Below, one piece after another: positions 5,286-38,925 of a DNA stretch of 41,402 nucleotides (positions within the stretch are counted from its first letter, which is position 1; every line of letters begins with the position of its first letter). The translations under genes were made by a program, and so were the position numbers. Source of the stretch: Thermotogota bacterium (GTDB lineage Bacteria > Bipolaricaulota > Bipolaricaulia > UBA7950 > UBA9294). The DNA is taken from the NCBI GenBank assembly GCA_039679545.1, contig JBDKUT010000062.1:1-41402 (forward strand), written 5' to 3'. The notes under the pieces are model-generated. The model worked only from the letters and a program-made list of their open reading frames with translations, was not told the DNA's origin and made no database searches.

Positions 5286-5293
5286 GCATGAAC

Positions 5294-5896: not shown

Positions 5897-5963
5897 GAGC
5901 CCGTCCAACCGGCGGTACGTCTTGCGAAAGAGGTCATCCCAGTGCATGCCCAGGGGTGGCGTG

Positions 5964-10467: not shown

Positions 10468-12270
10468 CTACGACGTCTTCGAGACCTTGGGGGTCTTCCC
10501 CTTCAGCCCTTCCAGCTTCCCCGTGGAACCTGCAGAGTTTTCCCCGGCTCGCCGCCGCTCGGTCGCGCGCACGTCGACCACAACGGGGTCGCCCGTGAGC
10601 ACAACACCGTAGACGGAGCCCGCTGCCTCCCGGGACACATACCCGTTTTCGACGTCGGCTCGAACCTCCTCCAGGGGACGCGCCATCGGATCGCCGTAGC
10701 CGCCGCCCGTGCCTGTGATGAAGCGAACCAAGGTTCCGGCCGGCATGCTCTCCCCGGAAAGGCGGCCGCGTCGGTCGATCCGGCCGTCGGGGTAGTAGAC
10801 CTCAACCCGGTTTTGGGATCCGTCCTGTCCACCCGCGAATCCCCACGGCGGATACAGGTGGCGGCCGAAGCTTGCAGTCACCGACGCACGGGAGTTGCAA
10901 ATGCGGTAGTCCTTGACGATGCCCAAACCGCCGCGTCGCGCTCCGTGTCCGGCATCCGCAGCGTGAAGCGCGAACTGCTCTACAAGGAGCGGGTAGCGCG
11001 TCTCGGCGACCTCGGCGGACAGGATGTACGTCTCGCCGTCGTTCGTGCAGACGAGGGCGCTCTCCCCGTCCTTTCCCGCCGCCGCGCCCCATCCCCCCGC
11101 ATTGGGCTCAACGGAAAAGAACCACTTTCCCGTCTCGTCGGAGATTCCACTGACGGTGGTGCCGCAGACTGAGAGGAAGTGGCCAGCGGGAATCCGGTCC
11201 GGAAGCGCCGCCGCAAGCGCTCTCCAGATGACGTCCCCGGAGTACGCGTCCGACTCCCAGTAGGTGCTGATGGGGGCCGGGCGCCTCGGATTGAACACCG
11301 TGTCCTCGGGCACGACGATGCGAAGGGGAGCGAAGAAGCCCTCGTTCGGCGCCGCGTGGGGCGACAGAACGCTTTGGTACGCGAACTTCACCGTGCTGAT
11401 CAGAACAGACAACGGACAGTTGATCGGCCCGGCGCACGTCTTGCCGGTCCCTGTGAAGTCGACGACAAACTCGTCGTCGCTGAGAGTGACGCGAACGTGC
11501 ACGGGGACCGGGTCACCTCCAAGTCCGTCGTCGTCGATGAACTCCTCGGCTTCGTAGACGCCGTGAGGCAGAGACCGAAGCTCCGCCAGGGCGTGACGTC
11601 GGCCCTGATCGATCGAAATCTCGATCGCCTCGAGCACGCCCTCGACGCCGAACTTCCCGCATAGCTCGGCCACGCGGCGGGCGGCGACTTGGAGCGACGC
11701 CGCCTGGGCACGCATGTCACCGAGGGTCAGCTCGGGAGCTCGCACGTTGCGGGCCACCATTTCGACGATGTCCTCGACCTCCTCGCCCGCGGAAACGAGC
11801 CGGACGGCGGGAAACTGGATTCCTTCCTGGTAGATGTCGGTCGCGCTCGGAGACCAACTCCCCGGATCTTTCCCGCCGACGTCGTTCCAGTGCGCTTTGC
11901 TCGCCGCGAACAGCACCAACTCGCCGTCAAAGAAGACGGGGGCGACAAGGACGACGTCGTTCTGATGCGTGGCGCCGCCCATGTACGGGTCGTTGGTCAT
12001 GAACACGTCCCCGGGCCGGATGCGCCCGTGAAACTTCGCGAGCACGTCGCGTACGGCGTCGGTCAACACTCCAATGAACGGCGGGATGCCGTTCGCCTGT
12101 GCGACCATGCGGCCCGTGCGATCGACCACGGCACATCCGTAGTCGAGGACCTCGTAGATGACGGAGCTCTTCGCGGTGCGTCCGAGCGCCACGAACATCT
12201 GCTCTGCCGCGGAGACCAACGCCCGCTTGATGACTTCGACGGTGAAGAGGTCGACGGTACACGCGGTCAT
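10468..12270 (-). CDS. Hydantoinase B/oxoprolinase family protein (copy 2)
   Basis: SSVIYEVLDY, TNDPYMGGATHQND, AHWNDVGG, YQEG, RGGLG and TGTGGGYGDP motifs. Start MTACTVD overlaps the upstream A-subunit stop. Confidence 0.92.
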   Translation of the reverse strand: MTACTVDLFTVEVIKRALVSAAEQMFVALGRTAKSSVIYEVLDYGCAVVDRTGRMVAQANGIPPFIGVLTDAVRDVLAKFHGRIRPGDVFMTNDPYMGGATHQNDVVLVAPVFFDGELVLFAASKAHWNDVGGKDPGSWSPSATDIYQEGIQFPAVRLVSAGEEVEDIVEMVARNVRAPELTLGDMRAQAASLQVAARRVAELCGKFGVEGVLEAIEISIDQGRRHALAELRSLPHGVYEAEEFIDDDGLGGDPVPVHVRVTLSDDEFVVDFTGTGKTCAGPINCPLSVLISTVKFAYQSVLSPHAAPNEGFFAPLRIVVPEDTVFNPRRPAPISTYWESDAYSGDVIWRALAAALPDRIPAGHFLSVCGTTVSGISDETGKWFFSVEPNAGGWGAAAGKDGESALVCTNDGETYILSAEVAETRYPLLVEQFALHAADAGHGARRGGLGIVKDYRICNSRASVTASFGRHLYPPWGFAGGQDGSQNRVEVYYPDGRIDRRGRLSGESMPAGTLVRFITGTGGGYGDPMARPLEEVRADVENGYVSREAAGSVYGVVLTGDPVVVDVRATERRRAGENSAGSTGKLEGLKGKTPKVSKTS

Positions 12271-14315
12271 GGGGTGACCTCCTCGGCGAGGATCAGATTG
12301 CCGAACCGGTCTCGCCGCAAGGTTTGTCCCGGGAGGACGATCGTCGTCGCCGCTGGCTCCTCGATGACGGCGGGGCCTTCGATCTCCCGGTCGACGGGGA
12401 TCCGATCCCGCTCGAAGACCCGGGCGCTCACCCACCCGAGACCTTCATACTGCACGCGGCGGTCCTTCTTGCGCGCCACGGAGAGCGGGGCTGACCCTCC
12501 GCCCACTTCACGGAGCGACGGCTTGCGCACGGTTCCCCACGCCGCCACGTGGTAGTTGACAACCTCGACGGGATCGGCGAGCCGGAACACATACGCACGC
12601 TCGTGCAGGCCATGGAAGCGCTCGAGGAGGCGGTCGAGGTCGTCGTCGTCGTGAATCGGCGTCAGGACGGTGTGCTCTTGACCCGCGTAGCGCAGATCGA
12701 CGTAAAGCTGTGCCCAGGCTCGCTCGACGACGACGCGCTCCTCCGCGAAGCCTCGCAGAGCCTCGGAGGCCAGATCGCCGATCTCGGAACGGACGTGCTC
12801 CCACGTCGCGGGGGTGCACGGCGTGACACAGGTTCGGACGAAGTCCTGCCGCAGGTCGGTGAGGAGCATTCCCCACGCGGAGAATTGGCCCGGCGCCGCG
12901 GGAACGAGGATTGTGCCGACGTGGAGCTGCCGCGCGAGCGACGACGCGTGGAGTCCGCCGGCGCCTCCGTAGGCGACGAGAGCAAAGTCGCGCGGGTCGT
13001 GGCCGCGCTCCACCGTAACGCGCTCAAGCGCGGCTTGCATGTTGGCGTTGACCAGACGCAAGATTCCCATCGCCGCGTCGTCTACGCCGAGACCGACCTG
13101 TTCGCCGAGCGTCGCGACCGCACGGCGCGCGTTTTCCCCATTGAGGGTCATCCGCCCACCGAGGAAGTAGCCGGCGTCGAGTCGGCCGACGACAAGGTTC
13201 GCATCCGTTACCGTAGGCAGGTCCCCTCCGCGGTTGTAGCACGCGGGACCAGGACTCGCCCCCGCGCTCCGCGGGCCGACGTGAAGCCCGCCTCCCTCGT
13301 CGAGCCACGCAATGGATCCCCCGCCAGCGCCGACCTCGACGATGTCGACGACGGGGATGCGAAGCGGATAGCCGGCCCACGTTTGTGACCGCTCGAGGTG
13401 GTAATCGGTGCGGATCGCGACGTCTCCGGACTCGATCACGCTGACCTTGGCGGTGGTTCCGCCCATGTCGAAGGCGATGCAGTTCGCAAGGCCGGCTTGT
13501 CGAGCCACGGCGGCCGCTCCGATGATCCCGCCGACGGGCCCCGACTCGACAAGGTGGATCGGCAGCCGCCGCGATCGTCCGAAGCTGCTCGTCCCCCCGT
13601 TCGACTGCATTGCCAGCATCGAGCCCCGCAGGCCGCGAGCCTCGAGCTGCTCCGCCAATGAAGCGAGGTAGGCGTCTGCCACGGGGCGCACATAGGCGTT
13701 CAAAACGGTGGTGTTCGTTCGCTCGTACTCCCGCCACTCGCGCGTCAATTCATAGGACGCGGAGACCGGAATCCCCGGGCAGGCTTCCTCTAGGAGGCAC
13801 TTCGCTCGCTCCTCGTGCTCGACGTGCGCGTAGGCGTGGAGGAAACAGATCGCGATCGCCTCGACGCCTCTGCGCCGGCACGCGGCGGCGACTTCGAGCA
13901 CGTCCTCTTCGCACAGGGGCTCGAGAACTTCGCCCTTCCAGGTGACGCGCTCGCGAACCTCGAATCGCAGGGCCCGCGGCACGAACGGCGAGGGCTTGCG
14001 GTAGAGGAGGTTGTACATGTCGGTCCGGTTCGCCCGCTGGATCTCGAGAACATCACGAAAGCCCCGCGTCGTGACGAGCGCGACGCGGCACCCCGTTCGC
14101 TCGGTCAGTGCGTTGATCACCACGGTTGTTCCGTGGACAAACTGGGAGACGTCCGCAAGGTCGATGTCCCCCTGAGCGATCGCGTCGAGGACGCCGTCGG
14201 CAAAGTTCCCGGGCGTCGTCAACGTCTTGCCAAGGTCGAGCGCGCCGGTGGACTCGTCAAGAGCGACCAGATCCGTGAACGTGCCCCCGATGTCGACGGC
14301 AAGCCTTCTGCTCAC
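12267..14315 (-). CDS. Hydantoinase A/oxoprolinase family protein (copy 2), ATP-binding subunit
   Basis: VDIGGTFTD, HGTT, EYERTNTT, ESGPVGG, DMGGTT, GAGGGS, PGPACY, TVTDANL, YGGAG. Confidence 0.94.
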   Translation of the reverse strand: MSRRLAVDIGGTFTDLVALDESTGALDLGKTLTTPGNFADGVLDAIAQGDIDLADVSQFVHGTTVVINALTERTGCRVALVTTRGFRDVLEIQRANRTDMYNLLYRKPSPFVPRALRFEVRERVTWKGEVLEPLCEEDVLEVAAACRRRGVEAIAICFLHAYAHVEHEERAKCLLEEACPGIPVSASYELTREWREYERTNTTVLNAYVRPVADAYLASLAEQLEARGLRGSMLAMQSNGGTSSFGRSRRLPIHLVESGPVGGIIGAAAVARQAGLANCIAFDMGGTTAKVSVIESGDVAIRTDYHLERSQTWAGYPLRIPVVDIVEVGAGGGSIAWLDEGGGLHVGPRSAGASPGPACYNRGGDLPTVTDANLVVGRLDAGYFLGGRMTLNGENARRAVATLGEQVGLGVDDAAMGILRLVNANMQAALERVTVERGHDPRDFALVAYGGAGGLHASSLARQLHVGTILVPAAPGQFSAWGMLLTDLRQDFVRTCVTPCTPATWEHVRSEIGDLASEALRGFAEERVVVERAWAQLYVDLRYAGQEHTVLTPIHDDDDLDRLLERFHGLHERAYVFRLADPVEVVNYHVAAWGTVRKPSLREVGGGSAPLSVARKKDRRVQYEGLGWVSARVFERDRIPVDREIEGPAVIEEPAATTIVLPGQTLRRDRFGNLILAEEVTP

Positions 14316-15292
14316 GCCGATGCCTCCCGCTGCGACGGGTACAGGTGACAGCGAACCACGTGACCCGGCGCGACCTCGACCGTTCCCGGGTCGATCTTGT
14401 CGCAGACGTCAAGGCGGCTCGGGCAGCGCGAGTGGAAGCTGCATCCGGGAGGGATGTTGACGGGGCTCGGGATTTCGCCGCGCGAGATCCCCTTGGCCGG
14501 CTTTAGGCTCTCCTCCTCGTCCGAGACCACCGGAATCGAGGAGAGAAGCATCTTCGTGTACGGATGAAGCGGCGTCTGGAAGAAGTCGGCTGTGTTCGCG
14601 ATTTCGCTCAGCTTGCCGAGGTACATGATCGCAACCCGCGAGGCGACGTTTCGCATGAGCGACATGTCGTGGGTGATGAACAAGTAGGTTAGCCCCATCT
14701 CCTTCTGCAACCCAAGAAGGAGGTTGATGATCTTCGCCTGAACCGAGACATCGAGCGCCGACGTCGGCTCGTCGAGAACAACGAACGAGGGGTCGGTCGC
14801 CAGAGCGCGGGCAATGGCAACCATCTGCTTCTCGCCGCCCCCGATCGACTGCGGGTGCTTGTAGAGATACTCGGCCGGCGGAAGCTCGACGCGTTCGAGC
14901 AGCGCGCCGATTCGCGCCAATTGCTCGCGTCCCGAGGCCATGCGGTGAACGGCGAGCGGCGTCGCCAGGATCTGCTTGATCGTCCGCTTCGGATTGAGCG
15001 ACGAACCGGGGTCCTGGAATACGATTCGGATCTCACGCTTCAGGTCCTTGCCGCGCTTCGCCGCCGTGGCGCCGATGGACTGCCCGTGGAACAGGATGTC
15101 GCCTGTCGTGGGAGCGTAGATTCCAACCACGCACTGCGCGGTCGTCGTCTTTCCCGACCCGGATTCACCGACCAGCCCGAGGGTATCGCCCGGCGCCATC
15201 TGAAAGTCGATGGCGTCGACGGCGCGCACGGTGCCTCGCTTCGTGGGGAAGAACTTTGTCAGTCCGCGAGCTTCGAGGATGGGTTCGGTCAT
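14312..15292 (-). CDS. Oligopeptide ABC transporter ATP-binding protein (OppF-like)
   Basis: GESGSGKT, VLDEPTSALD, ITHD, HPYT and GCSFHSRC. Signature is the atypical SIGGGEKQ. Confidence 0.92.
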   Translation of the reverse strand: MTEPILEARGLTKFFPTKRGTVRAVDAIDFQMAPGDTLGLVGESGSGKTTTAQCVVGIYAPTTGDILFHGQSIGATAAKRGKDLKREIRIVFQDPGSSLNPKRTIKQILATPLAVHRMASGREQLARIGALLERVELPPAEYLYKHPQSIGGGEKQMVAIARALATDPSFVVLDEPTSALDVSVQAKIINLLLGLQKEMGLTYLFITHDMSLMRNVASRVAIMYLGKLSEIANTADFFQTPLHPYTKMLLSSIPVVSDEEESLKPAKGISRGEIPSPVNIPPGCSFHSRCPSRLDVCDKIDPGTVEVAPGHVVRCHLYPSQREASA

Positions 15293-16290
15293 GACGGGGA
15301 CCTCCGGTACAGGTAGCAGGCTGCGCGCTGGTCGGCTCCGACGTCGAACATCGGTGGTACCTCGACGGAGCACTCGGGCATTCGGTGGGGGCAGCGCGGG
15401 TGGAATCGGCATCCCGACGGCGGAGCAAGGTAGTTCGGGATCCGCCCGGGGATTCCCTCGCTGACACCGCGCCCCGTGAGGCGAGGCACGCTCGCCATCA
15501 ACCCCTGCGTGTACGGGTGCTTCGGCGACGCGAGCAGTTGCCGCGTAGGACCGGTCTCCACGATCGAGCCAGCGTACATGATGTAGATGCGCTGCGTCAG
15601 GTCGCGGACCACGCCCATCGAGTGCGTGATCATGAGGACGGACGAGCCCTTCTGGTCGACGAGCCGATCGAGCTTGCGAAGAATCTGATCCTGGATCGTG
15701 ACGTCGAGGTTGGTGGTCGGCTCATCGGCGAGAAGGAGCCGCGCGGTCGTTGACAGGGCCTCCGCAATGCAGACGCGTTGGCGCATTCCGCCCGACAACT
15801 GGATCGGGTAGTTCGACATGATGCGCTCCGGATCCGGCATCCCCGTCTCCTCAAGCGCCTGGATGCAGCGCGCTTCGATCTCCCGCCGCGAGAGGGACTT
15901 CCCCTCAGGGGTGCGCATCGAGTCGCGAACGATGTCGCGAAGCTGTGAGCCGACCGTGAACACCGGGTTGAGCGACTGCAGAGGGTCCTGGAAGATGGCG
16001 GTCAACTCCTCCCGACGCAACACGTGGAGCGCGTGTCGGTGCATTCGGAGGATGTCCCGGCCACGGTAGAGAATCTCCCCGCCGGTTACCCTCGCGGGAG
16101 GGATCGGAAGCACGCGCAATACAGACTTCACGGTTGTCGTCTTCCCGCAACCCGTCTCGCCGACGAGGCCGACCCGCTCGCCCTCGTGAACGGCCAGCGT
16201 GACGCCGGTCAGGACCCGAAGATGGCCTTCGAAGATGCGGAAACCGACGTGGAGGTCACGTATTTCGAGAAGAGACAAGGAGTTGGGCAT
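15289..16290 (-). CDS. Oligopeptide ABC transporter ATP-binding protein (OppD-like)
   Basis: GETGCGKT, LSGGMRQR, LADEPTT, HPYT and GCRFHPRC. Start MPNSLSLLE at 16290. Confidence 0.93.
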   Translation of the reverse strand: MPNSLSLLEIRDLHVGFRIFEGHLRVLTGVTLAVHEGERVGLVGETGCGKTTTVKSVLRVLPIPPARVTGGEILYRGRDILRMHRHALHVLRREELTAIFQDPLQSLNPVFTVGSQLRDIVRDSMRTPEGKSLSRREIEARCIQALEETGMPDPERIMSNYPIQLSGGMRQRVCIAEALSTTARLLLADEPTTNLDVTIQDQILRKLDRLVDQKGSSVLMITHSMGVVRDLTQRIYIMYAGSIVETGPTRQLLASPKHPYTQGLMASVPRLTGRGVSEGIPGRIPNYLAPPSGCRFHPRCPHRMPECSVEVPPMFDVGADQRAACYLYRRSPS

Positions 16291-17186
16291 CACACATCCT
16301 CCACGGCAAAGACGTCGCGCAGGCCGTCTCCAATGAGGTTGAACGCGAGAATGACGATCACGATGGCGAGCGCGGGGAAGATCGTCGACCACCACTCCGC
16401 GGGAAGGCGTTTCGCGCCCTCGGCAACCATCGTCCCGAGCGCAGGCTTGGGCGGTTGCACACCCAACCCGACGAAGCTCAGCGTCGACTCGATGAGGATG
16501 ACGAGGCCCATGTCGAGCGTCATCTTGGTCATGATCGGGGCGAAGCAGTTGGGGAGGATCTCGCGGAACAGGATGTGCGCCTGGCTCGCTCCGGTGAGCT
16601 CTGCCTCCTTGACGAAGTACTCGTTGCGTAGGGAAGAGGCGAGCGAGAACACGAGGCGCGAGTACCACGGCCACCAGACGAGGGCGATCGCCATCATCTG
16701 GTTGATCAGGTTCGGCGTCAGCATCGCCGTGATGGCGAGGGCCAAGACCAGCGGAGGCACCGCGAGGAAGACGTCGGTGACCCTCATGATCACCACCTCG
16801 ACCCACGTCCCGCGGCGGTATCCGGCGATGAGCCCCAGGATGACTCCGGGGGCCACACCGAGGCCCAGGACGACGACGCCGATCAGGAGCGAGAACCGAT
16901 ACCCGAACAGGATTCGACTGAAGATGTCGCGACCGATACGATCGGTCCCGAAGAAGTGCTGCGCGCTCGGGGCCTGACTTGCCTCACGGAAGTTCGTGTA
17001 CGCCTTGGCGTGCCCGGGGTACGGGGCGATGTACGGCGCGAAGATGGCCACGAGCACGATCAGGACGAGGACGACCAATCCGATCACGGAGAGCGGGTTG
17101 CGCGAGAACTTGTACCAGCCGTGGGCGAGGTTGCGCTTCCGCTGTCGCCATGCGGCCAGGAGGTTGGCCTTTGTCGAGTCTTGCAT
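16290..17186 (-). CDS. Oligopeptide ABC transporter permease (OppC/DppC-like)
   Basis: HFFGTDRIGRD, EAA-like loop YFVKEAELTGAS, LSFVGLG and multiple TM helices. Confidence 0.93.
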   Translation of the reverse strand: MQDSTKANLLAAWRQRKRNLAHGWYKFSRNPLSVIGLVVLVLIVLVAIFAPYIAPYPGHAKAYTNFREASQAPSAQHFFGTDRIGRDIFSRILFGYRFSLLIGVVVLGLGVAPGVILGLIAGYRRGTWVEVVIMRVTDVFLAVPPLVLALAITAMLTPNLINQMMAIALVWWPWYSRLVFSLASSLRNEYFVKEAELTGASQAHILFREILPNCFAPIMTKMTLDMGLVILIESTLSFVGLGVQPPKPALGTMVAEGAKRLPAEWWSTIFPALAIVIVILAFNLIGDGLRDVFAVEDV

Positions 17187-17189
17187 GGC

Positions 17190-18209
17190 CTACGCACCTC
17201 CCTGTCGAAGGCGAACGGTCGGATCGAGGAACATGATGATCACGTCGACGAGAAGATTCACGAGAGCGAACGTGACTCCGATCACGAGGACCACGGCGAC
17301 GATCGCGTTGAGGTCCTTGTTGAGCATCGCCGTCATGGCGTAGCGCGAAAACCCCGGCCACATGTAGACGGTCTCGACAAGGAACGCGTTCGACATCAGG
17401 AAGGCGAAGTCCAGGCCCATGACCGTGACCGTCGGGATGATCGACGGGCGAAGCAGGTACTTGAACAGAATCCGCCTTGTGTTGATCCCGTGGACCCGGT
17501 GAAGCGTGATGTAGTCCTTCTGCATCGTCTCGACAATCGACGTCCGCGTGATCCGTCCCTCCTGAGCGATGTGGATCACGGAGAGACTGAACGCTGGCAG
17601 AAGCAGGTGCTTGAGAGCCGTCAGGGTCACATCGGGACGGCCCGCCAAGAGGCCATCGATGATCATGAACCCCGTTCGCGCTGGAGGAGCCTGCATCATG
17701 ATCGGGATTCTGCCGATCCCCGGCGCCAGCTTGAGTACCTGGCTGAACACGAAGAGAAGGAGAATGGCGATCACGAACGCCGGCGTCGCGATCCCCAAGT
17801 ATGAGACAAGACGAGACGCTCCATCGAACCACGAGTTGCGGAAGTACCCGGCGAGCACCCCGGTCACCTGCCCGAAGATGAAGGAGATCAAAGTCGCAAA
17901 CAGGATCAACTCCAGCGTGGCCGGAAGGTACTGGGCCAAGTCGGTCGTCACCGGCCGCCGCGTGTATGAGGACACCCCCAGATCGCCGTGCAGCAGGGAT
18001 CGGAGCCAGTAGTAGTACTGGACAGGAAAGGGGTCGTTAAGGTGCATCTGCTCCCGCACCCGCTCTACCTGTTCCTGCGTTGCCAGAAGGCCGAGAGCCT
18101 GACGGGCGGGGTCACCCGGGACCACTCGGGCGATGAAGAAGATGAGAAGCGAGAGGCCAAAAAGAACGAACACCGACTGCAGGAGCCTGAGACCGATGTA
18201 CTTGGCCAT
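17190..18209 (-). CDS. Oligopeptide ABC transporter permease (OppB/DppB-like)
   Basis: PGDPA, GDLGVS, LPATLEL, VETVYMWPG and TM helices. Confidence 0.93.
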   Translation of the reverse strand: MAKYIGLRLLQSVFVLFGLSLLIFFIARVVPGDPARQALGLLATQEQVERVREQMHLNDPFPVQYYYWLRSLLHGDLGVSSYTRRPVTTDLAQYLPATLELILFATLISFIFGQVTGVLAGYFRNSWFDGASRLVSYLGIATPAFVIAILLLFVFSQVLKLAPGIGRIPIMMQAPPARTGFMIIDGLLAGRPDVTLTALKHLLLPAFSLSVIHIAQEGRITRTSIVETMQKDYITLHRVHGINTRRILFKYLLRPSIIPTVTVMGLDFAFLMSNAFLVETVYMWPGFSRYAMTAMLNKDLNAIVAVVLVIGVTFALVNLLVDVIIMFLDPTVRLRQGGA

Positions 18210-18240
18210 GCTGTCCTTGCGCTCGGTTTCGAGCGACGAA

Positions 18241-18270
18241 GGAGGGCGAGACCCGCAGGTCTCGCCCTCC
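18241..18270. terminator. Perfect 13-bp stem-loop between binding-protein and permease genes (partial terminator or mRNA stabiliser)
   Basis: GGAGGGCGAGACC-cgca-GGTCTCGCCCTCC, at the typical position downstream of an ABC solute-binding gene. Confidence 0.65.
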
Positions 18271-18279
18271 CGTTGCGGG

Positions 18280-19920
18280 CTATCTGCCCATCGCCTCTTT
18301 TGCCTTCAGGTTGATCCGCCACATGTGCATGTTCTCGCTCGGACCAATGAAGACGATGGTCTCCTGCGGTCCGACGATGTACGCCTGGCGGGCGAACAGG
18401 GTCGGCTTCTGATACGGATAGAACGCGAGCGCGTGGGCCGCAATCAACGGCTGCACCTGCTCGTAGAGCGCAAGGCGCTTGGCGGCGTCAGGCTCCGCCC
18501 GCGTCGCATCCAGGATCCGGATGATCTCGGGGTCGTCAAAGAACCAGTGAGCCTCGAAGATCCATCCGAGCCCCTTCGGCGCAAACATCGCGTACGTGTA
18601 GTAGTCGTGCGTCGGCGCGGACTGCGGGCCGAACAGGAAGATCGTCATGTTCGGCGTCGTCTCGGGTGACGAGCACTCCGCGGAGTACTGCGGCCACGGG
18701 GGCCCGGTAACCTCGACCGTCACGCCGAGCTGCGCCATGTCGGCCTGCAGCTGAAGCCCGACCTCTTCCTCGAATCCCAATCCTCCGCAGAAGTGGAAGG
18801 CCACCTTGACGTTCTTCAGGTCCTTCGCGTACTTGGAGAGCGCCAGCTCCTGGCGCGCCCGCTCGAGATTCTGCTTGCGCGGCTGCGGATCGATGGGCAC
18901 GTATCCTGGCATGTTCGGCAGCAGGATTCCGGTCTCACCGTTTCCGAACGCCATCCACGGGCCGACGATGCTCTCGTAGTCAAACGCGTACAGGATCGCC
19001 TTGCGGAAGTGCTCGTCGTCGGTCGGCGCCACCTTCGAGTTCATCCACACCGTCACGTTCTGCGCCCACACGCTCGAAAACGCGAGCGTGAGGTCCTTCT
19101 GGATCTCCTGAAGTTGCGGGAGAGTCCAGCCGCCGTTGATTTCGAGGTCGAGTCCGCCGCTCTTCAGAAGCGTCATGAGCGTCGTGTAGTCGGTCTCCAT
19201 GATGAAGACCAGCTTCTCAATCGGCACTTCGTCCGGGCCCCAACCCTCGTTCGACCAACCTTCAAAGTAGCCCGCGAAGCGCACCGCGTCGAGACGCTGC
19301 CCCGGGATGTGGCTTGTCATCTGATACGGGCCGGTCCCGGCGTCGTGCGTCGTCAGCCAGTCCTCGCCGTAGTCCCCGAACTCGCCGTAGTTCCCGGCTT
19401 TCTTGTTCGCAAGCACGACGGCCTTCTCCACCGGGAAGAACAGCACGAGAACCTCGGGGAAGATGGCGCTCGGTTTGTCGAGCACGAAGTCGACGGTGTA
19501 GCGATCCACCGCGACCGCATTGACCTTTCCCAACGGCCCCGAGTTGCCGCGCCCCATGGCGATGAACCGCGCCATGGAGAATGCAACGTCCTCGGCGGTC
19601 ATCTCGTTGCCGGAGTGGAACTTCACTCCCTGTCGAAGCACGAATCGCCAGTGGGTGAAGTCTCCCCCGACCGGCTCCCAGCTCGTCGCCAGGTGAGCCC
19701 GAACTCCGCCCTCCGGAGCGGGGTAGACGAGCGGGCTGTACAGGTTGTACATCGTCTCCGTGTCATACCAGTCCGACGCGGTGGCCGGGTCCGCCGTGAT
19801 CACGGGGTACCCGTTGATGACGGCCACGTTGTCCGTGGCACCCAATCCGATGAAGCCCATCAGGCCGACGACAAGCGCGGAGAGCGCCGCCGCCACACCT
19901 AGAAGCCTCGGAATTCTCAC
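18280..19920 (-). CDS. Family 5 extracellular solute-binding protein (OppA/DppA-like)
   Basis: Sec signal without a lipobox, LATSWE, LRQGVKFHSG..TAEDVAFS, GTGPY and RKAILYAFD. RBS GAGGTG before GTG. Confidence 0.93.
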   Translation of the reverse strand: MRIPRLLGVAAALSALVVGLMGFIGLGATDNVAVINGYPVITADPATASDWYDTETMYNLYSPLVYPAPEGGVRAHLATSWEPVGGDFTHWRFVLRQGVKFHSGNEMTAEDVAFSMARFIAMGRGNSGPLGKVNAVAVDRYTVDFVLDKPSAIFPEVLVLFFPVEKAVVLANKKAGNYGEFGDYGEDWLTTHDAGTGPYQMTSHIPGQRLDAVRFAGYFEGWSNEGWGPDEVPIEKLVFIMETDYTTLMTLLKSGGLDLEINGGWTLPQLQEIQKDLTLAFSSVWAQNVTVWMNSKVAPTDDEHFRKAILYAFDYESIVGPWMAFGNGETGILLPNMPGYVPIDPQPRKQNLERARQELALSKYAKDLKNVKVAFHFCGGLGFEEEVGLQLQADMAQLGVTVEVTGPPWPQYSAECSSPETTPNMTIFLFGPQSAPTHDYYTYAMFAPKGLGWIFEAHWFFDDPEIIRILDATRAEPDAAKRLALYEQVQPLIAAHALAFYPYQKPTLFARQAYIVGPQETIVFIGPSENMHMWRINLKAKEAMGR

Positions 19921-20045
19921 GCTGCATCACCTCTTTCCGCTTCCTTCAGCCACGCACATGCCTCCCTCCAGGTTCTCGACTGCTCTTCGTTCCACCTCCT
20001 CTTTTGATCTATCTTCGTGACCGCGGCGGCAGACGCCGCGCCTCT

Positions 20046-21158
20046 TCAATCCACAATCAAGAGCTCGTGAGTCACGGTCGTCATCGGCATGCCGCTCGAC
20101 TCCGAAACCACGACGATGTCCTCGATGCGGACCCCGAAGCGCTCCGGAAAGTACACACCGGGTTCCACGGAGAAAGCCATCCCGGGCTCGAGCGGGATCT
20201 TGTTTCCCGCGACGATGTACGGGGGCTCGTGGATGTCGAGGCCGATGCCGTGTCCCGTGCGGTGGATGAAGCGATCGCCGAACCCTCGTGCGGTCAGGAA
20301 GTCCCGAGCCACACGGTCGATTTCCTCGGCCGGTACCCCCGGTCGCACGGCGTCTACGGCCCGCTGCTGCGCCTCGCGAACCGCGTCGAAGGCCGTTCGA
20401 ACCTCGCGCGATGGATCGCCGCACACGACGGTCCGGCTAATGTCCGAGCGATAACCGCCCGTGCGGCACCCGTAGTCGAGGATGACCGCGTCGCCGCGCG
20501 CAATCCGGCGGTTTCCCGCCCGGTAGTGAGGCAGCGCCGACGCCGGCCCCGAAGCGACCAGCGGGTTGAACGCTGTGTTGTCGGCTCCGGCGCTCCGCAT
20601 GGCGTCCACCAGGACCGCGGCGATCTCGAGCTCCGTGCGCCCGATGAACGGCGTCTCGACGACCCGCCGAAAGGCCTCGTCGGCGATCGAGCCGGCTCGA
20701 CGTAGGAGCTCCACTTCCTGGACGTCCTTTCGCATGCGGAGCTTCGCGAGAACCGGTGTCGCACTTGAGAACGCGCGCTTGGGCAGCGCCTCCTGGCACG
20801 CGAGGAGGAACTCCGACCAAAGGGACTCCTCAACCAAAACCGTTCCCGGTGGCCTCGCCACGTCCTTGACCGCCGCCGCAAGAGCGTCGTGCGGGCCCTC
20901 GTGATCGGCCCACACGAAGTGCTTCGCGAACCCGGTGTCGACCCGCACTTGCTCCGCGTAGAGCTCAGGAACCACGAAGGCCGGCTCGCCCTCCCGCGGA
21001 ACCAGAACCACCAAGAGGCGTTCGCCCGGGTCGTCGGTAAACCCCGTCAGGTAACGCATCGACGAGGACAGACCGACGATCAAGAGACCCGCGAAACTCC
21101 TCCCCAACTCACGCTGCACGGCGGATAACCGCTCGCCGTACGGCTTTACGCTCGTCAT
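20046..21158 (-). CDS. M24 family Xaa-Pro dipeptidase (prolidase-like)
   Basis: MRYLTGF, LRMRKD, ALPHY, ILDYG, YRSD, HRTGHGIGLDIHE, SVEPG, GVRIED. Confidence 0.93.
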   Translation of the reverse strand: MTSVKPYGERLSAVQRELGRSFAGLLIVGLSSSMRYLTGFTDDPGERLLVVLVPREGEPAFVVPELYAEQVRVDTGFAKHFVWADHEGPHDALAAAVKDVARPPGTVLVEESLWSEFLLACQEALPKRAFSSATPVLAKLRMRKDVQEVELLRRAGSIADEAFRRVVETPFIGRTELEIAAVLVDAMRSAGADNTAFNPLVASGPASALPHYRAGNRRIARGDAVILDYGCRTGGYRSDISRTVVCGDPSREVRTAFDAVREAQQRAVDAVRPGVPAEEIDRVARDFLTARGFGDRFIHRTGHGIGLDIHEPPYIVAGNKIPLEPGMAFSVEPGVYFPERFGVRIEDIVVVSESSGMPMTTVTHELLIVD

Positions 21159-21643
21159 TTCGTTGACTTACCTCCTCGGTCCGCCTGACGCGGAGCGTCA
21201 CTCGCTGGAATCCGCGTCAGACGAATCGTCTCGATGCCGTGTTGCCAGATCCGAACGCCGATCTCGGCGATCTTCGGCCACTGGTCCTGCGAGACGCGCG
21301 CGAAGACATTGACCGACAGGAACCCGTGATGGTCGCGGACGACCTCGGCGCCGTAGTATACGGAGAGCGCCTCGTTCGCCTCTTCACCCTTCTCCCACTC
21401 GCGCCAGTAGATCATGTCCCCGATGTTCACCGTCGACGTGTCGTTCTCGCGCGGGGGGCCGGAACGGCCGAGCGCCACCGGAAAGTAGACCTCGCGCCCG
21501 CACCACCGCGTGTGGTACGCCGTCGTTTCGAGCGGAAGTGCGGCAAGCACCGCGGAGACCGTCCGGGGAGCGAGCTCGGAGAGAACGTCAGCAATGAGCA
21601 CGCCGCCGCGCTCGAACTCGAGCCGAATGCACTCGCCCGTCAC
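21155..21643 (-). CDS. Cyclophilin-like fold protein (DUF3830/DUF369-like)
   Basis: APRTV..VLAALPL....HTRWCGREVYF...PREN.T....GD..YW pattern recalled from this family. Translationally coupled on both sides. Confidence 0.7.
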   Translation of the reverse strand: MTGECIRLEFERGGVLIADVLSELAPRTVSAVLAALPLETTAYHTRWCGREVYFPVALGRSGPPRENDTSTVNIGDMIYWREWEKGEEANEALSVYYGAEVVRDHHGFLSVNVFARVSQDQWPKIAEIGVRIWQHGIETIRLTRIPASDAPRQADRGGKSTK

Positions 21644-23400
21644 CGCTTGTCACCCACCTTGCCAAGCTTCTTGCGCAGGGTCGTCGTGGCGGTTCGATCG
21701 ACGGCGAGTGTGCCTGGGTCCAAGGACACTCCGTAGTCGGAGCGCGCCGCTTCGAGGGACACGTAGCCGTTGGCCACATCGTCGGCGACTGCGGCCGGGT
21801 CGCGGTCAAGCGGATTCCCATACCCGCCGCCGCCGCCGCCCTGGAAGCTGACGACCTCGCCCTTCGCGAGCGGGAGGTTGGAGATCTTCCTCCACCGCTC
21901 CTCTCGCCCGTCGCGGCGATGGACGACCGTGATGTTCGTCTTTCCCGGCTTCCCGCCGAAGACGCCCCACGGAGGCGTGTACAGCACGCGATCGGCGGTG
22001 ACCGTCAGCCCGGCGTCGGAGCCTAGGCGATACTCGCGATGGACCCCGAGCCCGCCGCGGAACTTGCCCGCTCCGCCGGAATCCTTGATCAGCTCGAACC
22101 GCTCAACCTGCCACGGATAGCGGATCTCGACGACCTCGGCCGGGACGTTGTAGGTGTCGCCGAGCGTCATCGAGAACAGCGCCGCCTCTCCGTCCTCGTT
22201 CGGTTTTCCGCCGTATCCGCCGGCGTCCGCCTCCGCACAGACGTAGTACTTCTTCGACTTCGGGTCGGTGCCGTAGATGAAGTTGGCCATCGAATCCCCG
22301 AAATGCCCTCCGCGGACCTGGTCCGGGATCGCGGGAGCGAGGGCTTTGAGGAACAGGTCGGGGATCGTCGACGACGGCGTTGGCCACATCGCGCACGCCG
22401 CCGGGAACTTCGGCTTCAGGAAGCTTCCGTCCGGAATCACGATCCGCAGGGCGCGGAAGAACCCCTCATTGCTCGGAAGGTGAGGACTGGTCACGATCTT
22501 GAACGCGTAGCGGGTCGCCGAGATCGTCGACGGCTCGGGCGTATTCATCGGACCGCGGCTCTGCGGACCCGTCCCGGTGAAGTCGGCGATCATCTCGTCG
22601 TCGTCCACCGTGATCGTGAGCTTCAAGAGGAGCTTCTCGTCAAGCGGAGCATCGTCGTTCCCGTCGCCGTCGAGGACGGCCTCCGCGGCGTACACTCCGT
22701 TCGGGATGCGCCGCACAGCGGCGCGGGCGAGCCGCTCGCCCTGGGCCAGGATCTCGGCGAGGGCCCCCGTCGTGGTCTTCACGCCGAAGCGGTCGATCAC
22801 CTCGGAGAAGCGCTGGCTTCCCTTGCGCACCGCGGCCACCATGGCTCGAATGTCGCCGAGCACGGCGTCGGGTACCCGCGTGTTCGCGCGGATCAGGCGG
22901 AAGACGTCGTCGTTGTTCTTCCCTTCAATCAGCAGTTTGACGGGGGGAAGGCGGAAGCCCTCCTGGAAAACCTCGACGGTGTCGCTGTACCACCCGCCCG
23001 GGTAGATGCCCCCCATGTCGACGGTGTGGCCTCGGAATGCCGCCCACCCGAGGATCTCCCCGTCGTGGAACGCAGGACAGAGTGCGACCAGATCGGGGCA
23101 GTGCGTGCCCCCGCCGCTGTACGGGTCGTTGCACAGGATGACGTCTCCGGGGTGCAGGTTGGCGCGGCCGATCGTCTCGTAGGTCGACTGTACGGCGTAA
23201 CCCAAGTTCGCGAGGAAGATGGGGAGTCCCGGCGTCTCGGCGATCAGGTTCGCGTCGCCGTCGAGGATTCCGCAGCTGAAGTCGACGACCTCGTAAAGGA
23301 TCGGGGAGTACGCGGCGTGTTCGACGGTTCGCCGGATGTCGCGGCTCGCCGCGATCAGCCGGTTACGAACGACCTCCAGGGTGATCGGATCGATCTTCAT
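21640..23400 (-). CDS. Hydantoinase B/oxoprolinase family protein (copy 1)
   Basis: IDPITLEVVRNRL, SPILYEVVDFS, NDPYSGGGTHCPD, GHTVDMGG, FQEG, GAGKFRGGLG, GGGGYGNP. Confidence 0.94.
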   Translation of the reverse strand: MKIDPITLEVVRNRLIAASRDIRRTVEHAAYSPILYEVVDFSCGILDGDANLIAETPGLPIFLANLGYAVQSTYETIGRANLHPGDVILCNDPYSGGGTHCPDLVALCPAFHDGEILGWAAFRGHTVDMGGIYPGGWYSDTVEVFQEGFRLPPVKLLIEGKNNDDVFRLIRANTRVPDAVLGDIRAMVAAVRKGSQRFSEVIDRFGVKTTTGALAEILAQGERLARAAVRRIPNGVYAAEAVLDGDGNDDAPLDEKLLLKLTITVDDDEMIADFTGTGPQSRGPMNTPEPSTISATRYAFKIVTSPHLPSNEGFFRALRIVIPDGSFLKPKFPAACAMWPTPSSTIPDLFLKALAPAIPDQVRGGHFGDSMANFIYGTDPKSKKYYVCAEADAGGYGGKPNEDGEAALFSMTLGDTYNVPAEVVEIRYPWQVERFELIKDSGGAGKFRGGLGVHREYRLGSDAGLTVTADRVLYTPPWGVFGGKPGKTNITVVHRRDGREERWRKISNLPLAKGEVVSFQGGGGGGYGNPLDRDPAAVADDVANGYVSLEAARSDYGVSLDPGTLAVDRTATTTLRKKLGKVGDKR

Positions 23401-25442
23401 CGCTCCTCCTCGTGCACCGAGATGATCAAGGTTCCGTACTCATCGACGCGGCAGCTTTGCTTCGCTTCGACCACCGCGGTTGCCGTGACTTCTTCGATCA
23501 GCGCTGGACCGTCGACGACGTTCCCGGCAAGCAGCCGCTCGCGGCGGTAGATCGCAAACGGCTGATGCCGGCCGCTTCCGATGTACACGGGGCGCTCCCC
23601 CATGCGGGCATCGGCGGGCGGCGTCTTCGAGCCTTTCTGAATCTTCTCCAGTACCGGCTTGTTGACACTCCCGATCCCGATCACCTTGAGCGAGACGATC
23701 TCCTTCTCCTCCTCGGGGGCGTTGTGGCCGTACACTCGGAGGTGCGTCTCGTCGAACGCCGCGGCCAGGCCGGGCTTCGCCGTCTCGGTGACGGGGTACG
23801 TGGCCCCAACGGCGAGCGTGTGTTCCTGGCCGACGTAGCGCAGATCGAGTTGATACGACATCGCGATCTGCTTCTTGTCGACGTTCTCCTTCCGGAACAC
23901 CTCACGAATCTTCTCCTCGAGCGAAGCGAGGGTGGCGTTGAGCTCCCCGATGTCGGCCGAGCGCAATGGAGCGATGTAGGTCTGGCCAAGGTCGTGGCGC
24001 AGGTCAGCCATGAGCATGCCCCACGCGGAAAAGACGCCGGAGTAGGGCGGGACGATCACGGTTGGGATGTGCAGATCTTTGGCGATCGCGGCGGCGTGGA
24101 TCGGGCCTGCTCCGCCGAACGCGACCATCGCGAACTCCCGCGGGTCGTAGCCTCGCTTCACGGTCATCGACTGGAGAAGGCCGGACATGTTCGTGTTGAC
24201 GATCTTGACGATTCCGAGCGCCGCCTCGTCGACGGAGAGCTCGAAGTGATCGGCGACCTTCTTGATCGCGTCATGCGCGTGGGCCTTCGAGATTTTCATC
24301 TCCCCGCCGAGGAAGTAGTCGGGATCCAGAATCCCGAGCTGCAGGTTGGCATCCGTGACCGTCGGCTCGGTGCCTCCTCGCAGGTAACACGCCGGTCCCG
24401 GCGCGGCGCCCGCACTCTGCGGGCCGACGTGCATGGCGCCCGCTTCGTCGATCCAGGCGATCGACCCTCCTCCCGCTCCGATCTCGCGCAGGTCCACGAC
24501 GGGGAGCAGGATCGGCCGTCCCTCCACGACGTACTGCTCGGCCGTCTCGGGAAGCCCTCCGGTGATGATGGACGTCTTCGCCGTGGTCCCGCCCATGTCG
24601 TACGAGATCACGTTGGCGAACCCGGCGAACTTCGCAAGCTGGGCGGCCCCGATAGCCCCGCCTGCCGGACCGGACTCGACCATGGCGATCGGCATGTCAC
24701 GGGCCACCGACGCCGCCATCACGCCGCCGTTCGACTGCATGATCTGAAGGATCTGGGTGAAGCCGCGCTTCCGAAGATCCTCCTCGAGCTGGTTCAGGTA
24801 CAGCCGAACGACCGGCATCACGTAGGCGTTCTGCGTGGCCGTGCTCGTTCGCTCGAACTCGTAGTAGCGCCGAGTGATCAGGTGGGACAGGGACACCGTG
24901 ACCCCGGGAAGCCGCCGGCCGAGGAACTCGCCGATTGCCGTCTCGTGCTCCGGGTTGGCGTAGGCGTTGAGCAGACACACGGCCACGGACTCCACCCTCT
25001 CTTGGACGAGGATGTCAATGAGGCTGTCCAGCTCCTCCTCGTGGAGCGGCACCACGACGCGGCCTTCCGCGTCGATTCGCTCGCGCACTTCGAGCCGAAG
25101 GCGTCGCGGCACGAGCGGGCGAGGCTTGGCGTAGAGCGCGTCGTACATCTCCGTCCGGTTCGAGCGGCCGATCTCAAGGACATCGCGGAAGCCTTGGGTA
25201 GTGATGAGCGCCGTCTTCGCGCCCTTCCCTTCGATCAGGGCGTTGATGACGACCGTCGTGCCGTGCGACAGGAACGAGGCGTCCCGCAGAGGAACGTTCC
25301 ACTTCTCGATGCACTCGATGGTTCCGATCGCGGGATTGTGGGGCGTGGAAGAGACCTTGCTGAGCCTGACCTTCCCCGTCTTCTCGTCGAGGAGTACACC
25401 GTCGGTGAACGTCCCCCCCACGTCCGTGCTGAGCCTATACAT
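23397..25442 (-). CDS. Hydantoinase A/oxoprolinase family protein (copy 1), ATP-binding subunit
   Basis: DVGGTFTD, HGTT, EFERTST, ESGPAGG, DMGGTT, GAGGGS, PGPACY, TVTDANL, FGGAGP. Confidence 0.94.
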   Translation of the reverse strand: MYRLSTDVGGTFTDGVLLDEKTGKVRLSKVSSTPHNPAIGTIECIEKWNVPLRDASFLSHGTTVVINALIEGKGAKTALITTQGFRDVLEIGRSNRTEMYDALYAKPRPLVPRRLRLEVRERIDAEGRVVVPLHEEELDSLIDILVQERVESVAVCLLNAYANPEHETAIGEFLGRRLPGVTVSLSHLITRRYYEFERTSTATQNAYVMPVVRLYLNQLEEDLRKRGFTQILQIMQSNGGVMAASVARDMPIAMVESGPAGGAIGAAQLAKFAGFANVISYDMGGTTAKTSIITGGLPETAEQYVVEGRPILLPVVDLREIGAGGGSIAWIDEAGAMHVGPQSAGAAPGPACYLRGGTEPTVTDANLQLGILDPDYFLGGEMKISKAHAHDAIKKVADHFELSVDEAALGIVKIVNTNMSGLLQSMTVKRGYDPREFAMVAFGGAGPIHAAAIAKDLHIPTVIVPPYSGVFSAWGMLMADLRHDLGQTYIAPLRSADIGELNATLASLEEKIREVFRKENVDKKQIAMSYQLDLRYVGQEHTLAVGATYPVTETAKPGLAAAFDETHLRVYGHNAPEEEKEIVSLKVIGIGSVNKPVLEKIQKGSKTPPADARMGERPVYIGSGRHQPFAIYRRERLLAGNVVDGPALIEEVTATAVVEAKQSCRVDEYGTLIISVHEEER

Positions 25443-26511
25443 TGCTTCCTCCTGATGGTCGAGGTTTCGGATGACCGACCCCGGTCGTTCCCTGCAGAGA
25501 GTTCTCCGTAGCCGCCTGCCACACCCGCTCCGTTTCGATCGACCCGGGAGCCGATCGAGCCAGAAGCAGCTTGGCTCCGCCGTTCTGCGTCGTTGCGCAA
25601 CCTCGGTGACTGAAAGCCGGGAGGTGGTAGCAGTCGCCGGATCTGAGGGCGTAGTCCTCTTCTCCGATTGTCAGTTGAATGCGCCCCTCAAGGACGAATC
25701 CGAACTCCTCCCCTTCATACGCTCCCGGCTCCTGTGAAAAGCCAGATGGGATCTCCGCCACGAGCACTTCCAGCGAGCCCGCGGGGAGCGCGCCGCTCAA
25801 GAAGCGGTACGTAACCGTGTTGTCTGAAAGCTTCACGTGATCCGCGCCGTCGTCGCTTCCCAAGAGGGGAACCCGCTTTTCCTGGGCTCCCGGAAGGTCC
25901 GGAAGTTCGGCGCCCAGAAGCGCGATCGCCTTGGCATACCGCGCCGTCTGCACCCACAGTACCTTCGCCCCGGACTCGGCCGCCGCACACCGGTGGGACG
26001 TCGCCGCAAGCAGGTGGTAGCTGTCCCCGATGCCCAGGTGGTGCTCCTCCTCACCTATCGTCAGGTCGATGGTCCCGTCGAGGATGTAGCCGAACTCTTC
26101 CCCCTCGTGGACGTGCGACTCGTGGGAACTCCCTTGCGCCATCTCGCCAATCAGCACTTCGAAGCGACGCCCGGGGAACTCGGCGCTGAGGAATCGGTAC
26201 TTGATCGACGTGTCCGACAAGCTGACGTACGAGCGGTTGTCTCCCTTCGTGATCGCCGAGGGACGCGGATCGGCGAGGAACGCCTTCCCGGGACCGTTCG
26301 ACATCACGAGCATGTCGGCCAACGCAACATCCAACGCTTCGCAGATAGCGCGGAGGGAAGGAATGGAGAACGACGACAACCCTCGCTCGATCTGGGAAAG
26401 GAAGCCGACCGAAAGACCGCATTGTTCCGAGAGCGAGCGCAGGGTCAACCCGCGTTGACGCCGTAGGTATCTGAGTTTGCGGCCAACCTCCTGGAGGCGT
26501 TCAGTCTCCAT
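25435..26511 (-). CDS. XRE-family HTH regulator with two tandem cupin domains
   Basis: HTH TLRSLSEQCGLSVGFLSQIERG, then two repeats of YRFLS...EGEEFG.(I/V)L.G...LTIGEE...GD.YHL. Confidence 0.88.
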   Translation of the reverse strand: METERLQEVGRKLRYLRRQRGLTLRSLSEQCGLSVGFLSQIERGLSSFSIPSLRAICEALDVALADMLVMSNGPGKAFLADPRPSAITKGDNRSYVSLSDTSIKYRFLSAEFPGRRFEVLIGEMAQGSSHESHVHEGEEFGYILDGTIDLTIGEEEHHLGIGDSYHLLAATSHRCAAAESGAKVLWVQTARYAKAIALLGAELPDLPGAQEKRVPLLGSDDGADHVKLSDNTVTYRFLSGALPAGSLEVLVAEIPSGFSQEPGAYEGEEFGFVLEGRIQLTIGEEDYALRSGDCYHLPAFSHRGCATTQNGGAKLLLARSAPGSIETERVWQAATENSLQGTTGVGHPKPRPSGGSNV

Positions 26512-26517
26512 GAAGCC

Positions 26518-26546
26518 ATTCTAGACAGAGTGTGAACGCCAGTCAA
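26518..26546 (-). promoter_or_regulatory. Sigma70-type promoter of the regulator/hydantoinase/Opp operon (leaderless)
   Basis: Minus strand TTGACT (26541-26546), 17-bp spacer, TAGAAT (26518-26523), 6 nt before the ATG at 26511. Confidence 0.7.
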
Positions 26547-26551
26547 GCGGT

Positions 26552-26568
26552 AGTGAACATCGTTCACT
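26552..26568. promoter_or_regulatory. Palindromic operator AGTGAAC-ATC-GTTCACT
   Basis: Perfect 7-3-7 inverted repeat just upstream of the -35. A related GTGAAC half-site lies at 26532-26537 in the spacer. Confidence 0.6.
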
Positions 26569-38817: not shown

Positions 38818-38925
38818 GCCGGGATTGTATAGGTCGACGAAACGTCCACAAAGCGAGCGGCGCTCTCCGAAGTCCGTCACGCAGAACTGGTATGATAGGG
38901 CGGAGCCCGGAGCCAAAGGGGGATC

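Follow-up and report, generated by a model that had tools for sequence, protein, structure and literature searches.

Two HyuA/HyuB hydrolase pairs with a peptide-type importer and a prolidase: a conserved operon with diketopiperazines as candidate substrates

What is taken up and broken down by an operon in which two ATP-dependent hydrolase pairs of the HyuA/HyuB type enclose a peptide-type importer and a prolidase, next to a gene of anaerobic hydroxyproline (Hyp) fermentation? This arrangement is found on a contig of 41,402 nucleotides (nt) from a Thermotogota bacterium that GTDB places in the Bipolaricaulota (assembly GCA_039679545.1, contig JBDKUT010000062.1; this whole stretch is hereafter called the window). 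An earlier note, made from the letters of the window alone, had proposed that the locus serves the catabolism of cyclic dipeptides (diketopiperazines) or of pyroglutamyl peptides. Our comparative analysis establishes the cluster as a conserved catabolic system that is built on a known enzyme family. Judging from genomic context only, we consider it probable that the operon acts in the catabolism of diketopiperazines of the cyclo(X-Pro/Hyp) type, a reading supported by neighbors resembling the cyclodipeptide oxidase AlbAB, by recruited dipeptidases, by a binding protein that has lost the ligand anchors of DppA, and by recurring proline-catabolic genes.

Cyclic dipeptides occur in abundance as natural products and signals that resist proteases. 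Bacteria are known to use them through ring opening followed by the action of a dipeptidase, and the ring-opening enzymes have been described as not identified (PMC3852281). Another paper raises, as speculation only, that cyclic dipeptide hydrolases may be present among the "oxoprolinases" (PMC6061476). The cluster supplies candidate genes for import, ring opening, epimerization and cleavage, including the breakdown step that has lacked assigned genes.

Gene order and distribution of the two modules

Pfam and NCBIfam scans resolve a minus-strand run from 26511 to 10468 in which every gene is intact; a glycyl-radical activase and then hypD come after hyuB2:

25435..26511, minus strand: XRE helix-turn-helix protein with two cupin domains, predicted ligand-sensing repressor (Pfam/NCBIfam)
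23397..25442, minus strand: HyuA-like ATPase subunit A1 (PF05378/PF01968/PF19278; ATP motifs intact)
21640..23400, minus strand: HyuB-like metal hydrolase subunit B1 (PF02538; D40, H100, D103, H125)
21155..21643, minus strand: DUF3830 cyclophilin-like protein (PF12903, PF04126)
20046..21158, minus strand: M24B metallopeptidase, prolidase-type (complete set of five metal ligands)
18280..19920, minus strand: family-5 solute-binding protein, oppA (dedicated clade; without equivalents of DppA R355 and D408)
17190..18209, minus strand: OppB-type permease (domain scan)
16290..17186, minus strand: OppC-type permease (domain scan)
15289..16290, minus strand: OppD-type ATPase, start corrected (domain scan and junctions)
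14312..15292, minus strand: OppF-type ATPase, start corrected (domain scan and junctions)
12267..14315, minus strand: HyuA-like ATPase subunit A2 (domain scan; ATP motifs)
10468..12270, minus strand: HyuB-like subunit B2 (domain scan; orthologues elsewhere head an operon that encodes a cyclodipeptide-oxidase homologue and a racemase)
9395..10315, minus strand: glycyl-radical activating enzyme (domain scans, corrected start)
7027..9390, minus strand: HypD, trans-4-hydroxy-L-proline dehydratase (NF043068)

The gene order and the largely overlapping junctions described earlier were borne out by these scans and by a check of each junction. The XRE-cupin gene and hyuA1 overlap by 8 nt, overlaps of 4 nt (ATGA or GTGA) join A1/B1, B1/DUF3830, DUF3830/M24, oppD/oppF, oppF/A2 and A2/B2, and oppC and oppD share 1 nt; gaps of 125, 70 and 3 nt lie 5' of oppA, oppB and oppC, respectively. 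The likely starts of oppD (16290), oppF (15292), hyuB2 (12270) and the activase (10315, 152 nt past hyuB2) are internal to the listed open reading frames and were corrected. A GC-rich hairpin spotted by eye in the oppA-oppB gap (18240-18271) may stabilize the upstream transcript.

Scanning species genomes with B1 as query recovered 54 loci, most at 70-97% identity, from Bipolaricaulota, Spirochaetota, Aerophobetes, Fraserbacteria and Eubacteriales, and the nearest relatives, at 91-97%, carry the titles Candidatus Bipolaricaulis or Bipolaricaulota. The order A1-B1-DUF3830-M24-Opp, here called module I, recurs among them, with the next relatives at 50% or less. Because this gene order is found in dozens of genomes, the arrangement is not due to chance. 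A2 stands directly 3' of oppF in the window and in nine further genomes (L025, L026, L034, L038, L040, L057, L061, L169 and L170). Elsewhere, pair 2 leads an operon of its own that comprises XRE-cupin, A2, B2, a nitroreductase, a small open reading frame, a second Opp system (its binding protein ca. 33% identical), a racemase, a short HyuA-like gene and DUF917. Since each module stands alone in other genomes, the sandwich is a fusion in which pair 2 was grafted onto module I, and we rejected a single ancestral unit because pair 2 heads its own operon elsewhere. The two-pair sandwich of the earlier note is real as a layout and joins two modules. Short HyuA-like genes without HyuB that are coupled to DUF917 genes were also seen near such operons (L037:298-5588, L206, L210 and L212) and possibly represent another type of pair that opens rings with ATP.

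On plasmids, 17 top matches were hand-picked from 889 and 177 listed records; the best matches of B1, B2 and the binding protein all lie in similar clusters, and these 17 loci include nine with an M24 gene and four with genes of proline catabolism next to the pair. An Opp system accompanied by two pairs is also present in Haloferax volcanii, H. mediterranei and Natrononativus. In H. volcanii, this layout surrounds the Opp genes on pHV4 (HVO_RS03525-03580), so that the idea is directly testable in a genetic model; a literature search with six Haloferax locus tags returned one glycoproteomics listing. Related clusters, often with proline-catabolic genes, are found in Parageobacillus, Thermus, alphaproteobacteria and actinobacteria. 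On metagenome contigs, several of them titled as or likely gut-derived, B2-clade pairs (L098-L113, L142) mostly have a small cupin gene only.

Neighboring genes were counted within 10 kb after the 23 earliest loci with short flanks had been excluded and 65 of 184 loci had been dropped (flanks below 7 kb or 95% duplicates); the counted loci are related rather than independent, and many flanks are cut by contig ends. Among 41 loci with B1 orthologues, 31 have an M24 gene, 34 the family binding protein, 35 DUF3830, 10 hypD, 14 any Pro/Hyp gene and 12 a TatD-like hydrolase. B2 orthologues (n = 27) are accompanied by AlbB at 13, the racemase at 10 and a peptidase at 7 loci, and other B2-clade loci (n = 22) by a peptidase at 11 and a racemase at 9. 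A peptidase is present at 5 of 9 sister loci, and 20 outgroup hyuB loci showed neither a peptidase nor the family binding protein, with a racemase at 2. Within the series L024-L071, TatD-like hydrolases lie by module I at 11 loci (L037, L043, L044, L045, L048, L051, L052, L054, L064, L066 and L067).

The hydrolase pairs and their partner proteins

In this enzyme family, subunit A activates a lactam with ATP and subunit B carries out the hydrolysis at its metal site (PMC8453981, PMC6061476). As had been noted, pairs 1 and 2 are divergent (A1/A2 46%, B1/B2 38% identity), and both A subunits keep the ATP motifs DxGGTxTD, DMGGT and GxxPGP with domains PF05378/PF01968. B1 and B2 combine PF02538 with the Asp/His/Asp/His metal tetrad given for CapAB (PMC8453981): His100, Asp103 and His125 are invariant in 71 B1-type and 49 B2-type rows, and Asp40 in every row that covers it. 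The closest solved relative of both is N-methylhydantoinase 7hk5 (324 and 288 bits), which differs at one metal-ligand position (Gln for His), and identity to solved relatives is ca. 35% or less. Models for CapA and CapB (NF050156/NF050157, cut-off 1000 bits) were not passed, with scores of 558/504 and 288/266 bits, and neither were those for acetophenone carboxylase ApcA/C/D (at most 332 of 1250-1500 bits).

In a FastTree of 356 HyuB sequences, B2 falls into a 91-member clade (support 0.979) that includes Haloferax volcanii, H. mediterranei and Natrononativus, and B1 forms a separate tight clade (70-97% identity, beyond which no relative exceeds 50%). The 226-leaf group that contains B1 and B2 leaves out AgaG as well as the third hyuB of the genome; NS671 HyuAB, CapB and 7hk5 were placed by pairwise scores and not in the tree. 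A housekeeping role of the operon pairs as 5-oxoprolinase was rejected because a separate third, apparently fused hyuAB gene, to which this function may fall, exists on contig C151 outside the clade.

Pocket residues common to B1 and B2 are Y36, F62 and, at 415, an acidic residue; R/K, H/Q and N predominate at these positions in the outgroup. A basic residue frequent in outgroup HyuB (84/130 with R or K) is Tyr in both. Many other pocket columns differ between B1 and B2, and this mixture points to related but distinct substrates. Because of these differing columns and the distinct binding proteins that accompany each pair, we infer that the two pairs would act on different ring substrates or stereoisomers. 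Seven loci combine one hyuA with two hyuB copies (L043, L054, L041, L095, L123, L203 and L208), which suggests that B subunits of different specificity share one ATPase subunit there.

The nitroreductase that follows hyuB2 orthologues best matches AlbA among solved structures (8uc3, E 6e-31; 9exv, 1e-30; the next at 3.5e-21), and directly after it comes a PF19585/AlbB gene (13/27 B2 loci). Together, the adjacent nitroreductase-like A and PF19585 B genes form a complete AlbAB homologue in pair-2 operons, with a predicted activity as cyclodipeptide oxidase (CDO). Across 184 genomes of the phylum, PF19585 was detected in 29/38 B2 genomes versus 13/146 others. The characterized members of the CDO family act on diketopiperazines (PMC11055893). 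In the window's own genome, an AlbA/AlbB-like pair (G000:C9:22154-22967) is preceded by an M20 peptidase gene and by one for an AMP-binding enzyme. The racemase of pair-2 operons has both catalytic Cys residues and matches OpaE (E 1.5e-21, 80 bits), which epimerizes an aminoacyl center in a cyclic peptide alkaloid (PMC7530659).

The operon's M24 protein has Creatinase_N and M24 domains with the D, D, H, E, E metal ligands, and its best NCBIfam model is the Xaa-Pro dipeptidase PepQ, below cut-off (215 of 630 bits). M24 proteins associated with the hydrolases form one clade from Haloferax to Bipolaricaulota (support 0.991) with all metal ligands kept, unlike the opine cyclase AgcA, an M24 protein without them; we therefore rejected an AgcA-like non-peptidase role for the operon M24. 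Other loci carry amidohydrolases resembling Xaa-Pro dipeptidases, dipeptidase-like M20 and M19 enzymes, all under curated cut-offs. As for N-carbamoylases, at which no search was aimed, the only M20 enzymes found near these hydrolases (L086 and L193) are dipeptidase-like. Because the M24 clade and several unrelated dipeptidase families adjoin these hydrolases, the ring-opened product looks like a dipeptide. DUF3830 has an invariant H-x-R-W-G-R-E motif, and its His, Arg and Glu residues suggest an activity of its own. Prolidases need trans X-Pro, and it is conceivable, if rather unlikely, that DUF3830 isomerizes cis-X-Pro from ring opening to the trans form.

The label oppA holds for the family-5 fold, which was confirmed by domain scan, an alignment-based model (predicted local distance difference test score, pLDDT, 91) and fold search, but not as a name beyond it, since identity to any solved binding protein listed is at most 22%. 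The fold search returned no close ligand-bound relative and therefore does not name the ligand. Binding proteins that travel with these hydrolases form one clade across archaea and bacteria (support 0.964) to which DppA and AgaA do not belong. Among 38 rows selected from this clade, D408 of DppA is kept in none and a gap takes the place of R355 in all 38, D50 (Asp) and W409 (Trp) are invariant, and the invariant Arg residues of the clade are mostly ones common to the DppA scaffold. D408 and R355 presumably anchor peptide termini in DppA, and their loss would fit a neutral-ring ligand.

Downstream, the hypD gene passes its equivalog model NF043068 (1174.6 versus a cut-off of 1100 bits). Genomes with B1 have hypD in 27/31 cases versus 42/153 others, and it was not found in 4/31; its position varies, lying within 10 kb of 10/41 B1 loci and not beside the other 31. 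The proposal that the operon feeds HypD is thus apt as a common link and does not hold as an obligatory one. ProDH/PutA stand by the pair in Parageobacillus, Paenarthrobacter and Rhodococcus (Bacillota, Actinomycetota), and proline-racemase-family or related genes lie at 6 of 20 listed non-Bipolaricaulota loci, with hypD adjacent at none of these. The genome also encodes an XRE-cupin with a 2Fe-2S/FAD subunit and a DAO-family subunit, like a proline or D-hydroxyproline dehydrogenase (G000:C21:55224-59141), and genes resembling these flank the operon in L045, L062, L176 and L195.

Diketopiperazines as probable substrates, and alternatives

For the diketopiperazine route, we envisage that the importer would take up uncharged cyclo(X-Pro/Hyp) rings, that subunit A would activate the N-H amide with ATP and that subunit B would hydrolyze it, which for cyclo(X-Pro) would give X-Pro, a prolidase substrate. 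Some hydantoinase/oxoprolinase-family members open tertiary lactams. The operon prolidase would cleave linear X-Pro or X-Hyp, and freed hydroxyproline isomers would pass to the neighboring epimerase, HypD and 3-Hyp dehydratase. A wider version of this proposal, which we hold to be plausible while leaning slightly toward doubt, sees A1B1 and A2B2 as the missing diketopiperazine ring-opening enzymes of a pathway across bacteria and archaea that has a dedicated binding-protein clade, an epimerase acting on the ring and a cyclodipeptide oxidase in a catabolic role and is wired here to glycyl-radical hydroxyproline fermentation. If true, CDO clusters without a cyclodipeptide synthase (non-CDPS clusters) would be reinterpreted, and the nitrogen pool of cyclic dipeptides would be tied to anaerobic hydroxyproline fermentation.

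Several observations weigh against diketopiperazines. The support is one of association among genomes that are not independent. A peptidase lies within 10 kb at just 7/27 B2-orthologue loci, gut-metagenome B2-clade loci carry the cupin only, and none of the counted features was seen at L224 or L221. The diketopiperazine reading leaves unexplained the NCS1 nucleobase-type permeases that flank 4 B1 loci, the creatininase-family hydrolase at several B1 loci and the TatD-like hydrolase at 12/41. In the window's own genome (93.6% complete), the racemase was not hit, ProC was not found, and the AlbAB-like pair is unlinked, on another contig (G000:C9:22154-22967). The comparison of DppA anchors depends on sequences aligned at 25% identity, and the anchors in other peptide-binding proteins are different ones. 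The racemase scores slightly better against allantoin/hydantoin racemase (84 versus 80 bits), and the authors who described non-CDPS CDO clusters favor hydantoin or purine chemistry (PMC11055893).

These last two points, together with 7hk5 as closest solved relative and the NCS1 permeases and DUF917 in the clusters, speak for the main rival, in which the operon would act on hydantoins or rings like allantoin (hydantoins of amino acids, or derivatives of purine or creatinine). HyuAB would then yield N-carbamoyl amino acids, the racemase would interconvert enantiomers, and M24, TatD-like or creatininase-like enzymes would decarbamoylate. We regard it as unlikely, given the low identity of B1 and B2 to solved relatives, the Gln-for-His difference of 7hk5 and the dipeptidase-like nature of those partner hydrolases that can be typed; moreover, recurring proline-catabolic neighbors would go unexplained unless the substrate were proline hydantoin. 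Somewhat less likely again is another lactam, e.g., an agropinic acid-like N-substituted pyroglutamate or a hydroxylated oxoproline, with the peptidase and hypD as mere scavenging neighbors outside a single pathway. The aga region of Agrobacterium likewise joins an Opp-type importer to hyuAB-like genes, AgaA is among the top structural matches of the binding protein, and hypD is not beside 31/41 B1 loci; against this, the hydrolase clade does not take in AgaG (30-31% identity), nor the binding-protein clade AgaA (24%), and the M24 gene is translationally coupled to DUF3830 and hyuB1, with its clade traveling with the system. Salvage of pyroglutamyl (pGlu) dipeptides, in which the lactamase opens the pGlu ring of pGlu-Pro or pGlu-Hyp and the prolidase cuts Glu-Pro, appears very improbable, and this alternative of the earlier note gained no support. 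The family does include 5-oxoprolinases, pyroglutamyl peptidase (PF01470) was not found in the genome, and pyroglutamyl peptidase I is not known to cut pGlu-Pro. Yet such a ligand has a free carboxylate, whereas the R355 loop is missing from the binding-protein clade, whose invariant Arg residues are mostly those of the DppA scaffold, the basic residue of outgroup HyuB is Tyr in B1 and B2, and the CDO pair and racemase would be left without a role.

How far does any known system resemble this operon? CapAB (PDB 6yra), P. putida OplAB and N-methylhydantoinase (7hk5) share the A+B architecture, the ATP motifs and the Asp/His/Asp/His site, but compared with CapAB the present subunits score 504-558 and 266-288 of 1000 bits, pocket residues differ, and a dipeptidase and dedicated importer are co-encoded. 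The aga region, which we take to serve agropinic acid catabolism, has an Opp-type importer (AgaABCD) and a HyuA/HyuB-like pair (AgaF/AgaG) for a cyclic amide, and the solved structures listed include one titled as an AgaA-agropinic acid complex. It differs from our operon in its distant AgaG and AgaA, in AgcA as an M24 protein without metal ligands, and in that an oxidase follows rather than a dipeptidase. The literature searched (without most subscription journals) listed no characterization of this system. The statement in the earlier note that no characterized system of this form is known needs correction in view of the aga region, whose layout is similar. The hyuABCE genes of Pseudomonas sp. 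NS671, presumably a hydantoin pathway and compared by description, share an ATP-dependent A+B hydrolase and a hydantoin-racemase-family enzyme but include the carbamoylase HyuC, whereas those downstream hydrolases that can be typed here are dipeptidase-like. That pathway is named in PMC8453981 and PMC6061476. Non-CDPS CDO clusters with AlbAB homologues, racemase, DUF917, AroM, Opp and peptidases match the stand-alone pair-2 operon; the accessible passages suggest hydantoin or purine metabolism or biosynthesis and do not discuss a HyuA/HyuB pair or diketopiperazine catabolism (PMC11055893). The pGEOTH01 cluster of Parageobacillus thermoglucosidasius C56-YS93 combines a B2-clade pair with genes for a racemase, a cupin, an Xaa-Pro peptidase and the oxidation of proline, and its downstream route is oxidative where that of the window is glycyl-radical. 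It has been described from annotation as serving proline and hydroxyproline capture, with no lactamase substrate proposed in the passages at hand (PMC4593210).

Regulation and flanking genes

Two elements lie upstream of the XRE-cupin gene:

26553..26567, no strand: perfect palindrome GTGAAC-N3-GTTCAC, predicted XRE operator (sole exact copy in the genome)
26518..26546, minus strand: sigma-70-type promoter TTGACT-17-TAGAAT (10/12 consensus matches)

The palindrome is found 56-60 nt 5' of the XRE match in 15/17 XRE-2xcupin loci, the promoter spacer contains a second operator half-site, and relatives show the same layout. A promoter scan gave 2 sites versus 1.6 expected by chance, so the promoter claim rests on this conservation. 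The transcript is predicted to be leaderless and the whole operon to lie behind this one conserved operator and promoter, which the XRE-cupin protein would repress until a pathway metabolite binds. A terminator scan gave 7 sites versus 11.4 expected, i.e., fewer than chance. Stand-alone pair-2 operons (L083, L158, L162-L171) show another, AT-rich inverted motif, GTGAAA...TTTCAC, within the promoter.

The genes to the left of hypD comprise two of the proline-racemase family, a second XRE-cupin gene (5288-5896, plus strand) and two further M24 genes:

5922..7022, plus strand: proline-racemase family with Cys/Thr pair, predicted trans-3-hydroxy-L-proline dehydratase (MCGH, DRSPTGTG; best model NF045511, 421 of 540 bits)
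4073..5164, minus strand: proline-racemase family with Cys/Cys pair, predicted proline racemase or hydroxyproline epimerase (MCGH, DRSACGTG)
3004..4095, minus strand: second M24 prolidase-like peptidase (domain scans, M24 comparison)

With these racemase-family, XRE-cupin and M24 genes to the left of hypD, the region is a hydroxyproline-centered cluster. In the close relatives L178, L179 and L180, an OCD-family gene that the window lacks lies between the second XRE-cupin gene and the 3-Hyp dehydratase gene. A divergent M24 gene with intact metal ligands (1817-2998, plus strand) ends a different Opp operon (with 25-1592, plus strand), and this operon converges on the prolidase-epimerase unit as a second peptide-scavenging module beside the Hyp genes. 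At the other end of the window, 34492-39438 (minus strand) encodes a protein of 1648 amino acids that combines a beta-helix with several PKD domains and carries a caspase-like domain at its C-terminus.

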